Of a stretch of DNA of 33,976 nucleotides, positions 18,990-21,563 are shown piece after piece. The stretch spans positions 1 to 33,976 of the forward strand of contig OMVC01000094.1 of assembly GCA_900314375.1 (NCBI GenBank). Direction: 5' to 3'. A model generated the notes under the pieces. That model saw only the letters and a list, made by a program, of their open reading frames with translations, was not told the origin of the DNA and did not search any database. Position numbers and translations under genes: made by a program. Every line of letters starts with the position of its first letter. Position 1 is the stretch's first letter. The stretch comes from an uncultured bacterium. GTDB lineage: Bacteria; Cyanobacteriota; Vampirovibrionia; Gastranaerophilales; Gastranaerophilaceae.

Positions 18990-19004
18990 CGACTCTTTTT
19001 GTCG
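18990..19004 (+). promoter_or_regulatory. 15-nt palindrome-containing element CGACTCTTTTTGTCG upstream of a TATAAT box (19016-19021) and AAGGAG RBS; putative operator, copy 1
   Basis: Identical 15-mer to 21549-21563 on the opposite strand. Both copies sit in the same position relative to a -10-like box, an AAGGAG RBS and an ATG (39 and 37 nt from the element to the ATG). Confidence 0.6.
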
Positions 19005-19043
19005 CAGTTAACTTTTATAATTGAATTATAAAAGGAGAACGAC

Positions 19044-19244
19044 ATGTTTAAAAAATTTTTATTGAAACTAAAAAAACAAATTTTAAAAGATGCTTACCAA
19101 AAAGCTGAAAAAATTATCAATGATGCCGAATTGAAAGCTCAAAAGATGATTTTTGAATCCGAAATAATGAAACGAATAAAAACAGAAGCCGAAAAAATTA
19201 AACAGGAAACAATATTAGAATGTAAAAGAATCAAAGCAGAATGA
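19044..19244 (+). CDS. Small (66 aa) lysine/glutamate-rich predicted coiled-coil protein, function unknown
   Basis: AAGGAG RBS 6 nt upstream of the ATG. The TGA stop overlaps the next ATG (ATGA), indicating translational coupling. The sequence is KAEKIINDAELKAQKMIFESEIMKRIKTEAEKIKQE. Confidence 0.6.
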   Translation: MFKKFLLKLKKQILKDAYQKAEKIINDAELKAQKMIFESEIMKRIKTEAEKIKQETILECKRIKAE

Positions 19245-19588
19245 ATAATTATATAAAGATTTTAATTTTTTTATTTTTATTATGCGGATTAACTATCACA
19301 ATCAAACCTCACGAGCCTGCAAATTATGTTTATAAAAAGACTCCTGTTGAGCCTTTAAATATAACTGTTCCTAAATCATTGAAAACAAATTTCAAAAACG
19401 GAATTGATTATTGCAAAACACAAAATATTGCACAAAACGGAGCTTTTGAAAATTGTGTTAAAACTTATATTAAGCAAAATTCCGCTACAGATTACAATAT
19501 TCTTATAAAAATTTTTGAATATTGCAATATGACAACAAAAACAGAATATGACAAATGGGATTGCCTTGAAAGTAAAATAAAATTCTAA
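19241..19588 (+). CDS. Small (115 aa) secreted or lipoprotein-like Cys-containing protein, function unknown
   Basis: Hydrophobic N-terminus MNNYIKILIFLFLLCGLTI, with five further Cys residues in the mature part. The start is coupled to the upstream ORF. The stop overlaps the stop of the convergent HNH gene by 4 nt. Confidence 0.6.
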   Translation: MNNYIKILIFLFLLCGLTITIKPHEPANYVYKKTPVEPLNITVPKSLKTNFKNGIDYCKTQNIAQNGAFENCVKTYIKQNSATDYNILIKIFEYCNMTTKTEYDKWDCLESKIKF

Positions 19589-20124
19589 TTATTTTTTTTC
19601 AAATCATAAATTTGGAACCCATGCACAAATGAATGTTCTGCTGCTGTTAATAATACAAGATTGTTGACACTGTTATCATACCCGTTATTACTGATATGAT
19701 GCACTTGATAACCGTCTTTTTCTTTTTTCCCTAAAAAAGCACTGGCAACAAGAGAATAAACATGTGTCGTTGTAGTAAAACCGCAAGGTGCTTTATAATA
19801 CTTTTTTTGAAAGGCTTTTTTGTCTAACACCAGATAGCCGATACATTCTTTGCCATTTTTTATTCTGTTTTTTTGAGGAACAATTCTTCCGAGATATTTA
19901 ACTCTGCCTAAACTGCTAATTTCATACCGCGTAAAACCCGAGCCTTCAATTTTTCCCCAAGTTTCATTCTTTAAGAGCGGAGTATCAGTATCTGCTGACG
20001 GGCTGATTTTCCATTTTTCAATGTCAGGAATATTTTTTAGTAATTGTTCTTTTTCATTAAGCTCTTTTTTTATATTTTCTAACCATATTTCATAATTTTT
20101 ATCCGATTTATTTTTTCTTTCCAT
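19585..20124 (-). CDS. NUMOD4 + HNH endonuclease (phage/homing-endonuclease type)
   Basis: NUMOD4-like WGKIEGSGFTRYEISSLGRVKYLG. HNH_3-like THVYSLVASAFLGKKEKDGYQVHHISNNGYDNSVNNLVLLTAAEH. I prefer the ATG at 20124 (MERKNK...); the ORF track uses a TTG at 20142. Confidence 0.8.
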   Translation of the reverse strand: MERKNKSDKNYEIWLENIKKELNEKEQLLKNIPDIEKWKISPSADTDTPLLKNETWGKIEGSGFTRYEISSLGRVKYLGRIVPQKNRIKNGKECIGYLVLDKKAFQKKYYKAPCGFTTTTHVYSLVASAFLGKKEKDGYQVHHISNNGYDNSVNNLVLLTAAEHSFVHGFQIYDLKKNN

Positions 20125-20134
20125 AATTTCGCCT

Positions 20135-20543
20135 TTATTCAAGATTAAGTGATACTAATTTTATTTGATTCTTTATTGATTTATCTGTATAATCGCCAAC
20201 AATAATGTTAGTTGATGAGTTGATATTTTTTGTTATAAAACTGATTATTTCAGATATTTCGTATAATGTTAAATTCTTATCGTGTATGATAAACAAAATT
20301 AAATTCTTTGTATTTTCTATATTATGAGAATTTATAAATATATTTAATGCATCTTTTTTTCTCTGCTTTTACAACATTGAAAGTACAATTTTTACTATTT
20401 ATTAAAGCATTTTTTATATCGGTTTTATTTAAAGTGATAAACCCTTTTTCAATATTGTCATTTTTAAGTTCCGGAAAAAGTTCTTCTGAAATATTTTTAT
20501 ATTTATCTTGCAAAATACATAATAAATCTTCGCATATTAACAT
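20135..20543 (-). pseudogene. FtsZ/tubulin C-terminal-domain-like ORF (~135 aa if joined), interrupted by a +1 frame change in an A7 run (T-run 20354-20360 on the plus strand); frameshifted or slippage-dependent
   Basis: Frame 1 is the 73-aa ORF ...KGFITLNKTDIKNALINSKNCTFNVVKAEKK. The next frame stays open through the A-run and reads DALNIFINSHNIENTKNLILFIIHDKNLTLYEISEIISFITKNINSSTNIIVGDYTDKSIKNQIKLVSLNLE*. The joined sequence follows the FtsZ pattern PGLINLDFADVK...G.A.GE.RA.EA...AI.S....GVL.NI.GG.DL.L.E........(I/M)I.G......L.D.I.V. Its ATG lies 2 nt after the WYL gene stop. Confidence 0.45.
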
Positions 20544-20545
20544 AG

Positions 20546-21511
20546 TTATTCCTTTATCTGTTTATACATTTCTTGAATTGTTTTGTTGTATGTGTCTTTC
20601 AGACTTTGAGGTGCAATAATTTTTACACTGCTGCGCCATTTTAGAATTTCTGTTATAATCTCAAATTCTCCGCTAGCTTTTAATGATAAAGTATACGAAC
20701 CATCATCATTTAATTTACCCTTTTGGGTTGGGTGAAAAAAGTATTCTTTAACATCTTCCGCGCAATCTTTATCAAATTGCAATACGACATCAAAAATTTC
20801 ACCTTGATAAACTCCAAATGACCTCCCGCAATATTCTTCCATATTAAAACTTTCATCTTTATCAAAATAATTATCAGTCAATTTTATTTCTTTAATTTTT
20901 GAAATTCTGTATGTCCAAATTGCTTTAACATAAGGGTTGTATGCAATTAAATAAACTCTGTCGGAATGTAAAATTCCATAAGGATTGAGTGTAAACTCTT
21001 TATCCATATCCGCATATTTGATAACAATTTGTTTTTGGCAAAGAATTGCGTCGTTTATTATTTGCAGGGTTTCAAGTTTTATATTTTCTCTAAATCCCTG
21101 TCTTACTGCGTAAGCTTGAGAGGATAAAATTTCATCCACATCAACATTAGAAACATTTTGAGGATTTAGTGCTTTGATTTTTTCAATGAGTTCATCAATT
21201 TCTTTTTGTTTTGTCGGAGATTTTATGGATTTTTTACAAAGTTCAAGATTGGCAAAATCGCTTGATGTAAAGTTTATAAGCCAATTCATTGTACCTTTTT
21301 TAAATCTCCAGCGTTTTTTCTTGTCTTTATTGTTATAAACTTCTTCAATTTTATTCCCGAACTTTTCAACCAAAACCGCTTTCATTCTTTCTGCGCTGCG
21401 GCGAGAACATTCAAATTCGTGTGCTATATCATCTAAAGTCAAACCGCAATAACTGTTTTGCATCAAAATTGCAAGTTCTATAATTTCGTTTGCTTTATTT
21501 AATCTGGACAT
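20546..21511 (-). CDS. WYL-domain transcriptional regulator (HTH - WYL - C-terminal extension; BrxR/CapW/PafBC-like architecture)
   Basis: N-terminal HTH: GLTLDDIAHEFECSRRSAERMKAVL. Central WYL-type segment: IVIKYADMDKEFTLNPYGILHSDRVYLIAYNPYVKAIWTYRISKIKEIKLTDNYF. AAGGAG RBS before the ATG. Confidence 0.8.
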   Translation of the reverse strand: MSRLNKANEIIELAILMQNSYCGLTLDDIAHEFECSRRSAERMKAVLVEKFGNKIEEVYNNKDKKKRWRFKKGTMNWLINFTSSDFANLELCKKSIKSPTKQKEIDELIEKIKALNPQNVSNVDVDEILSSQAYAVRQGFRENIKLETLQIINDAILCQKQIVIKYADMDKEFTLNPYGILHSDRVYLIAYNPYVKAIWTYRISKIKEIKLTDNYFDKDESFNMEEYCGRSFGVYQGEIFDVVLQFDKDCAEDVKEYFFHPTQKGKLNDDGSYTLSLKASGEFEIITEILKWRSSVKIIAPQSLKDTYNKTIQEMYKQIKE

Positions 21512-21548
21512 TTGTTTCTCCTTATATTTTCATAATATAACACAACTA

Positions 21549-21563
21549 CGACAAAAAGAGTCG
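21549..21563 (-). promoter_or_regulatory. Copy 2 of CGACTCTTTTTGTCG (read on the minus strand), embedded in a longer palindrome ACTACGAC-N7-GTCGTAGT directly upstream of the WYL-gene -10-like box; putative operator
   Basis: The minus strand reads AACTACGACTCTTTTTGTCGTAGTTGTGTTATATTATGAAAATATAAGGAGAAACAAATG. Confidence 0.6.

Follow-up and report, generated by a model that had tools for sequence, protein, structure and literature searches.

The transcription activator DriD of Caulobacter crescentus, which combines a winged helix-turn-helix (wHTH), a three-helix bundle (3HB), a WYL and a WCX domain, is activated by single-stranded DNA (ssDNA) and drives an SOS-independent DNA-damage response. 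Here we describe a gene cassette of 2.6 kb, located at about positions 18987–21579 of a 33,976-nt stretch of DNA (contig OMVC01000094.1 of assembly GCA_900314375.1, positions 1 to 33,976 of the forward strand, and referred to as a whole as the window) from an uncultured gut Melainabacterium of the Gastranaerophilales. It carries a gene for a DriD-like WYL protein, two copies of a palindromic promoter element and a few small genes grouped with an HNH nuclease gene. We favour, with a probability of about 0.65, the view that the cassette constitutes a compact and relocatable local regulon under a DriD-family WYL factor, activated by ssDNA and with a nuclease-centred output.

A consensus site ATACGAC(N7)GTCGTAT with an AT-rich gap has been described for DriD, and 68 of 69 DriD homologues have its generalised form CGXC(X)7GXCG in their promoters (PMC10853764). 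Promoters activated by DriD have no -35 element; the box takes its place, with a constant spacing to the -10 element, and the gene for DriD is not itself among those that the protein activates in Caulobacter (PMC13004042). The DriD literature cited here deals with DriD and its homologues from Caulobacter and other alpha-proteobacteria only, and with dispersed DNA-damage genes.

Two other groups of WYL regulators are pertinent. BrxR and CapW are repressors of BREX, CBASS and other islands; CapW sites overlap the -10 element and CapW represses bidirectionally (PMC9122588), BrxR sites lie downstream of the promoter, with two R-boxes present in one island for BrxR of pEFER (PMC9122601), and CapW is reported to sense ssDNA (PMC11662680). 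PafBC of mycobacteria, a WYL activator operating by sigma adaptation, has a domain order resembling that of DriD and is likewise activated by ssDNA, and its motif is described as replacing the -35 element with a constant spacing to the -10 element (PMC13004042; PMC11804915). PafBC is, however, a heterodimer with a non-palindromic site and needs RNA polymerase in order to bind DNA (PMC10853764).

The regulator and the two boxes

The features of the window that bear on regulation are the following.

18990–19004, plus strand: left DriD-type box CGACTCTTTTTGTCG, of the form CGxC-N7-GxCG with an AT-rich gap, occupying the -35 slot of the p66/p115 promoter
19016–19021, plus strand: left -10 element TATAAT, exactly 11 nt past the box, the intervening 11 nt being CAGTTAACTTT
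20546–21511, minus strand: gene for the DriD-family regulator, 321 aa, with a continuous alignment to DriD through the wHTH, the linker (three-helix-bundle region), WYL and WCX
21537–21532, minus strand: right -10 element TATTAT of the regulator operon, 11 nt past the box, the intervening 11 nt being TAGTTGTGTTA
21543–21569 (core 21549–21563), minus strand: right DriD-type box, a palindrome with 10-bp arms, CAACTACGAC-TCTTTTT-GTCGTAGTTG

Both the WYL domain (40 bits) and the WCX domain (44 bits) of the regulator score over their Pfam cut-offs. When the protein was compared with the sequences in the PDB, its sole relatives were DriD entries (8tp8/8tpk, 9pfq/9pfv/9pga, 7tzv, 7u02 and 9cu3) and residues 3–314 align to DriD with an E-value of 1.5e-27 in phmmer and of 9e-47 for a family profile, whereas no BrxR, CapW or PafBC chain was matched at E<=1 (single sequence) or E<=0.01 (profile). 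Identity to DriD reaches 35% in both the wHTH and the WCX, and amounts to 22% in the WYL domain and 19% in the linker/3HB region. The base-contacting residues R37, E40, R41 and K62 of DriD are R38, E41, R42 and K66 in the cassette regulator, where they are invariant or almost so in the family alignment and in 35 relatives. The recognition helix CSRRSAERMK is almost invariant across the same 35 relatives, and R8 of DriD is not kept, being E9 here. Judged by its sequence, the cassette WYL protein is thus a homologue of DriD rather than a generic WYL protein or a repressor of the BrxR/CapW type.

The right element, written out with its half-sites as ACTACGAC-TCTTTTT-GTCGTAGT, fits the published consensus and the 15-mer of the window is, therefore, the already published DriD site, a textbook DriD box which shares with its Caulobacter counterpart the TA../..TA flanks as well as the AT-rich gap. 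CGACTCTTTTTGTCG occurs in exactly two copies, at 18990–19004 on the plus strand and 21549–21563 on the minus strand, where 0.01 is expected by chance; none of 100 shuffles reached two matches, and no further copies were found in the window with two mismatches allowed. The palindrome arms of the left copy measure just 4 bp. The exact 15-mer was also present in 101 viral contigs of IMG/VR, with one match in each, which we judged to be at chance level and uninformative.

Both boxes are built into promoters of closely similar layout. On the left, the box is followed by AAGGAG at 19032–19037 and an ATG at 19044, with 39 nt from box to ATG; the promoter lacks a -35-like hexamer and the box bases in that slot read CTCTTT, unlike TTGACA. 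On the right, on the minus strand, AAGGAG lies at 21523–21518 and the ATG at 21511, 37 nt from the box. A preliminary description of this DNA, made from the sequence alone, had recognised the repeated 15-mer and the common promoter layout, with these same distances, and had proposed one regulatory site shared by two convergent operons with the WYL protein as its likely regulator, for which the present results provide support. Its estimate of 8 bp for the palindrome arms at the WYL gene was too short, and the specific match of both regulator and site to DriD was missed.

Promoter geometry and the sign of regulation

Related loci (numbered with an L in our set) were scanned for the pattern [CT]G[AT]C-N7-G[AT]C[GA] within 120 nt or less upstream of the WYL start, and 76 of them carried enough upstream sequence for the test. 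A box was located in 37 of the 76, where the background is 0.025 per 120 nt, and a TAnnnT hexamer begins exactly 11 nt past the box in 35 of these 37 Gastranaerophilales regulator promoters. The 11-nt gap to TAnnnT recurs at all of the second-site boxes that were listed. Within the window, the combination of box, 11 nt and TAnnnT is confined to the two cassette sites (0.2 expected), and related loci totalling 1.04 Mb contain 153 instances of it, a rate about 25-fold that obtained by shuffling in the window.

The arrangement of two box promoters is also conserved. Of 19 orthologous loci, 15 have another box ahead of the partner operon (L011, L012, L013, L014, L016, L017, L018, L020, L022, L024, L025, L026, L027, L028 and L029), again with the 11-nt gap, and the partner operon is convergent in the orthologous loci except for L018 and L019, where it is divergent.

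Because the box stands in the -35 slot at an invariant 11 nt from the -10 element, and CapW and BrxR sites lie at the -10 element or downstream, activation is favoured over repression and, by analogy with DriD, triggering by ssDNA appears the likelier mode. The preliminary description had assumed that regulators of this kind repress until a signal is sensed, which probably has the wrong sign here. As regards its suggestion of a repressed defence island, a role in defence can still be argued, at one remove, from the alternative cargo of relatives (see below), and the repressor part is probably incorrect.

By the same analogy, a dimer of the 321-aa protein would bind to both CGAC-N7-GTCG boxes, each of which would replace the -35 element, 11 nt upstream of the -10 element, in a promoter lacking a -35 sequence. 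ssDNA arising from DNA damage, or from the replication of an invading element, would bind to the WYL domain, as in Caulobacter DriD, thereby freeing the wHTH domains, and the bound factor would then recruit RNA polymerase. Both convergent operons would be switched on together, yielding the regulator, the HNH nuclease and intact p135 from one and p66 and p115 from the other, such that the nuclease and several small proteins are probably induced jointly by ssDNA. The output would most likely be a nuclease-centred conflict or stress response, either in defence, of an abortive-infection-like kind, or in response to DNA damage.

In other respects the comparison with Caulobacter reveals both parallels and differences. 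In both, the regulator gene has a box in its promoter region and, although no homology is involved, each system has a nuclease (bapE, and the HNH gene here) and a small membrane protein (didA, and p115 here). In contrast, the Caulobacter regulon is dispersed over the chromosome, with recA, recJ and dnaG among its genes, whereas here it is, within the reach of the data, a local cassette with two promoters. Moreover, this lineage carries several DriD-like paralogues per genome, and the surroundings of many of these are of a mobile-element or defence-like kind. We looked for changes in the recognition helix that follow the base at box position 3 (A or T) and saw none, because the helix is nearly invariant, and the idea of paralogue-specific operators was rejected; paralogues within one genome probably cross-recognise each other's promoters.

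Genes of the cassette

The genes downstream of the two promoters, in addition to the regulator, are listed here.

19044–19244, plus strand: p66, a 66-aa coiled-coil protein, with the AAGGAG at 19032–19037 as ribosome-binding site
19241–19588, plus strand: p115, a 115-aa single-pass membrane or secreted protein, coupled to p66 by an ATGA overlap (19241–19244)
19585–20124, minus strand: NUMOD4/HNH_3 nuclease, annotated with 179 aa in related contigs; the open reading frame (ORF) found mechanically reaches TTG at 20142
20135–20543, minus strand: p135, an FtsZ C-terminal-domain-like gene, split here into 73-aa and 53-aa ORFs by a +1 frameshift

The nuclease scores 33.7 bits for HNH_3 against a Pfam cut-off of 24.8, carries the HNH motif HH..N..N..H, read from the sequence as HHISNNGYDNSVNNLVLLTAAEH, and is matched by PHROG HNH families at 5e-16. 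For NUMOD4, the window protein attains 21.6 bits, under the cut-off of 23.4, and the orthologue of L013 attains 26.5 bits. Domain composition and size class are those of the free-standing NUMOD4/HNH_3 homing endonucleases of phages, but the gene is fixed, in most orthologous cassettes, downstream of a DriD-like regulator, a pairing that was not found in the viral contigs of IMG/VR.

The intact form of p135 matches FtsZ_C (PF12327) with 29.4 bits, over the cut-off of 27, and the window fragment yields 26.2 bits. Its best 12 sequence matches in the PDB are all FtsZ C-terminal domains, at weak E-values of 0.017–0.1, and include a T7-loop-like GFITLNKTD; the ftsZ model TIGR00065 gave 9.6e-08, far under its equivalog cut-off. 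An AlphaFold model of p135 was unusable, with a predicted local distance difference test (pLDDT) score of 42 on a shallow alignment. The frameshift lies at 20354–20360, where the coding strand reads A7 in the window and A6 in 18 of 19 related contigs, in which p135 is intact, and it could be due to an error in sequencing, to decay into a pseudogene or to phase variation. One other contig (L007) also has the longer run.

Regarding the opposing operon, p66 corresponds to just the N-terminal coiled coil of 160–250-aa proteins in relatives, which add WG repeats. p115 belongs to a tiny orphan family comprising 33 clusters, with 25 representatives in a set of 1.84 billion proteins; its model (pLDDT 81) has a hydrophobic helix at the N-terminus, then a linker, then a four-helix bundle that contains Cys residues, and Foldseek found no fold match to it in the PDB at E<=0.001. 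An LprI/DUF1311-like identity, considered in view of the pattern of cysteines, was unsupported by Pfam and by the fold search. PHROGs and NCBIfam revealed nothing in the five products past generic WYL and HNH.

The two operons meet at stop codons which overlap by 4 nt (19585–19588), with no terminator-like site between them. This convergence, and the coupling of the 66-aa and 115-aa genes, had been described correctly, as had the WYL and HNH domains, both now backed by Pfam; of the features originally named, NUMOD4 falls just short of its threshold in the window protein and the FtsZ-C-like gene, taken for a single ORF, proved to be interrupted by an extra homopolymer base.

Relocation and exchange of cargo

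A metagenome-assembled genome (MAG), UBA3301 (L011), contains a copy of the cassette that is 97.4% identical across exactly window positions 18987–21579 and has unrelated flanks, so that homology stops 3 nt outside the left box and 16 nt outside the right box. The neighbours of the copy in L011 are a gene for a GTP-binding protein resembling translation factors (LepA-like by eye) and one for a UvrD-like helicase; in the window it is flanked by thrS on one side and by a ShlB/POTRA (tpsB-type) gene on the other, as originally described. The GC content of the cassette is 27.8%, as against about 33% in the flanks. Neither thrS nor tpsB adjoins the regulator in any of 80 representative loci (L011–L090). 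The boxes mark the ends of the cassette because the box is the outermost promoter element.

Cargo can also change at a constant site. In L093, which derives from the same species and occupies the same thrS site, the match to the window, at 98–99% identity, takes in thrS, the box and the regulator gene as far as the stop codon of the latter (window 20546), past which there follow a 137-aa relative of p135, a 265-aa protein whose family connects it to DUF6994-like proteins at other loci, a p115 relative, a retron-type reverse transcriptase (RT), a DnaB_C ATPase and a WG-repeat protein. The L093 contig ends 45 nt past its box, before the far cassette boundary. The same cargo recurs at 95.8% identity in another MAG, and the RT of the alternative cargo matches the PADLOC model RT_II-A at 2.4e-53; retron-type RTs are present in L013, L014 and L093. 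Around the flavodoxin and thrS genes, all 10 places from the same species were occupied by one cassette type or the other, and no empty site was found. The cassette is, thus, a discrete and relocatable unit with exchangeable cargo, which bears out the preliminary description of it as self-contained.

L093 carries, in addition, within 15127–15277, a third DriD-type box, TGACCCTTTTTGTCG, followed after 11 nt by TATAAT and pointing antisense to the retron-type RT gene. The predicted transcript is a highly structured RNA of about 110 nt with a minimum free energy of -36.7 kcal/mol (z -5.6), ending in a bidirectional terminator. It is a candidate noncoding RNA, either retron-associated or small regulatory.

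A core recurs over regulator identities of 54–97%, consisting of the regulator, an approximately 180-aa NUMOD4/HNH nuclease and a member of the p115 family. The HNH gene lies directly downstream of the regulator in most orthologous cassettes and the p115 family gene at the 3' end of the opposing operon. The genes and the second box travel together, a co-occurrence which the preliminary description had put forward as a check.

Box promoters across the family

Among contigs from one genome per species in GTDB, relatives of the regulator belong nearly all to Melainabacteria/Gastranaerophilales MAGs from gut and rumen, and several DriD-like paralogues occur in each genome. None was found in the viral contigs of IMG/VR. 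The same regulator protein is present on at least 22 metagenome contigs, the contexts among those shown being thrS/tpsB.

In relatives, the genes located behind box promoters encode PDDEXK_4 nucleases (in a 37-member cluster), WG-repeat proteins, a PvuRts1I/SRA restriction enzyme, a GIY-YIG nuclease, an SMC_N ATPase, DUF2130 and DUF6994 proteins, a UvrD-like helicase and the retron RT. Many paralogous regulators are followed by genes for Prim-Pol and a DUF5906 helicase, Gp49/HI1420 toxin-antitoxin pairs and ABC-3C components, which suggests that these paralogue loci are mobile elements or defence islands using the same switch. The paralogue loci L030–L090 appear as multi-promoter elements with two to four co-oriented box promoters each.

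A TGTC..GACA variant of the box promoter is found at about position 13697 (minus strand) of L011, beside the relocated cassette and ahead of a 1017-aa UvrD-like helicase gene. It hints that DNA-repair-type genes may be part of the DriD-like regulons of this lineage as well.

Evaluation of the readings

Several observations weigh against an ssDNA-activated regulon. Overall identity between the regulator and DriD is just 28%, over the distance separating alpha-proteobacteria from Melainabacteria/Gastranaerophilales, and the residues of DriD which contact the alpha C-terminal domain of RNA polymerase (R121, R122, P125 and E128) are not conserved. Of eight key ssDNA-contact residues compared (DriD Y168, R176, R178, Y192, R204, R207, Y240 and R288), four are identical (Y166, Y187, R202 and Y235 here); three changes are conservative, and R178 is replaced by F and R204 by W. 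In the same comparison R176 is K, R288 is F and W206 is Y. The cassette box promoter faces the regulator gene, unlike the situation for the non-autoregulated DriD of Caulobacter, and the Caulobacter distance from box to -10 element is about 10–11 nt only by our reading of the oligonucleotide sequences in PMC13004042. p135 is broken in the window. PADLOC 2.0 matched the cassette products to generic WYL models only (1.5e-29), with p66, p115, the HNH protein and p135 lacking significant matches, consistent with the earlier remark that the gene combination fits no nameable system. Finally, binding of the regulator to the boxes, the ssDNA signal and the activating sign are all drawn by analogy with DriD, and a box over the -35 region could also serve a repressor.

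This last point leads to the reading in which the cassette is a repressor island of the BrxR/CapW type, where a WYL dimer on both palindromes blocks RNA polymerase until a ligand derived from phage or damage releases a toxic defence module. WYL repressors with palindromic operators do head many defence islands, and the cassette resembles them in its WYL-WCX homodimeric regulator heading a variable island and in its two boxes per island, as for BrxR of pEFER (PMC9122601); CapW, moreover, represses bidirectionally (PMC9122588) and is reported as an ssDNA sensor (PMC11662680). The PADLOC WYL matches and the retron-type RT of the alternative cargo point in the same direction, and a box in this position could occlude the polymerase. 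Nevertheless, the regulator shows no sequence relationship to BrxR or CapW structures at E<=1 and matches DriD over its full length, the box replaces the -35 element whereas their operators lie at the -10 element or downstream, and the 11-nt invariance (35/37) combined with the lack of a -35 element is a need of an activator and unneeded by a steric repressor. The sign of regulation is, therefore, probably the opposite, the cargo of the window matches no catalogued defence system, and we consider a repressor island unlikely.

Two further readings treat the cassette as selfish or decaying DNA, and both appear highly improbable, the first marginally more so. The inverted 15-mers could be the terminal inverted repeats of a small non-autonomous mobile element, their proximity to promoters being incidental, in keeping with their inverted placing at both ends of the unit, the abrupt limits of homology in L011, the different context in every representative genome and the lower GC content. 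Against this, no transposase or integrase domains were detected within the cassette or in the flanking genes and no target-site duplication is visible in the junction sequences; many paralogue loci carry boxes in one orientation at the heads of several operons; the box keeps its 11 nt to the -10 element and has the sequence of a characterised transcription-factor site; and its position at the ends is explained by its being the outermost promoter element. Alternatively, a selfish HNH homing gene and unrelated leftovers could make up the remnant of a prophage or homing endonuclease, as the phage-typical NUMOD4/HNH_3 architecture with its PHROG match, the frameshift in p135, the truncated form of p66 and the occurrence of paralogous regulators beside Prim-Pol/helicase and toxin-antitoxin genes of mobile elements might indicate. 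Such a remnant is difficult to reconcile with the absence of regulator relatives from the IMG/VR contigs and of phage structural or integration genes from the cassette flanks, with the order of WYL, HNH and p115 genes and both boxes being kept at 54–97% regulator identity, or with p135 being intact in 18 of the 19 related contigs.

We therefore return to the DriD-type local regulon as the preferred reading. For the effector genes, our best guess is a nuclease-centred response to conflict or damage, and the defence role is an inference from the alternative cargo of relatives.

Surroundings of the cassette

On the thrS side, the outer limit of the cassette is set by a terminator.

21581–21612, minus strand: intrinsic terminator of thrS, outside the cassette

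The right palindrome was itself considered as a terminator, and this was rejected because thrS has a terminator of its own and the arms of the left copy are only 4 bp long. An Rfam scan of the cassette gave sub-threshold hairpin matches on the palindrome only.

Beyond the tpsB side, a giant ORF of 5430 aa extends over 188–16480 (minus strand) and adjoins the tpsB-type transporter gene, with a neighbouring ORF at 16484–16852 (minus strand). This two-partner-secretion locus differs among strains, and the region of the giant ORF is called in other strains as differently split genes (e.g. of 328, 883 and >4300 aa, with a PilZ match). On the thrS side, some strains carry an extra 279-aa gene (L001, 5601–6440) between a small glycyl-radical gene and an activase gene, which is absent from the window (about 24950–25290) and from L002-type contigs.

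Implications

The same factor, box and promoter geometry that were described for Caulobacter are now seen in a distant and uncultured gut lineage, sister to the Cyanobacteria. What is new is the packaging of the DriD parts as a relocatable cassette with two promoters, forming a local and mobile regulon with swappable, defence-like cargo, and the exchange between strains of a set based on an HNH nuclease for one based on a retron-type reverse transcriptase. Two orphan proteins, p115 and the stand-alone FtsZ_C-like domain, are singled out.

A more speculative extension, to which we attach little weight at present, is that the DriD-type activators of the Melainabacteria and their one shared box make up a genome-wide, ssDNA-triggered network in which swappable nuclease and retron cassettes and mobile elements respond to a single alarm, as an activator counterpart of BrxR/CapW. 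p135 and p115 might then act as damage-induced division blockers like DidA, and the HNH nuclease like BapE.

If activation proves to be true, WYL activators, and not only the known WYL repressors, could control defence-like islands, and the invariant 11-nt rule would provide a simple predictor of such regulons in metagenomes.

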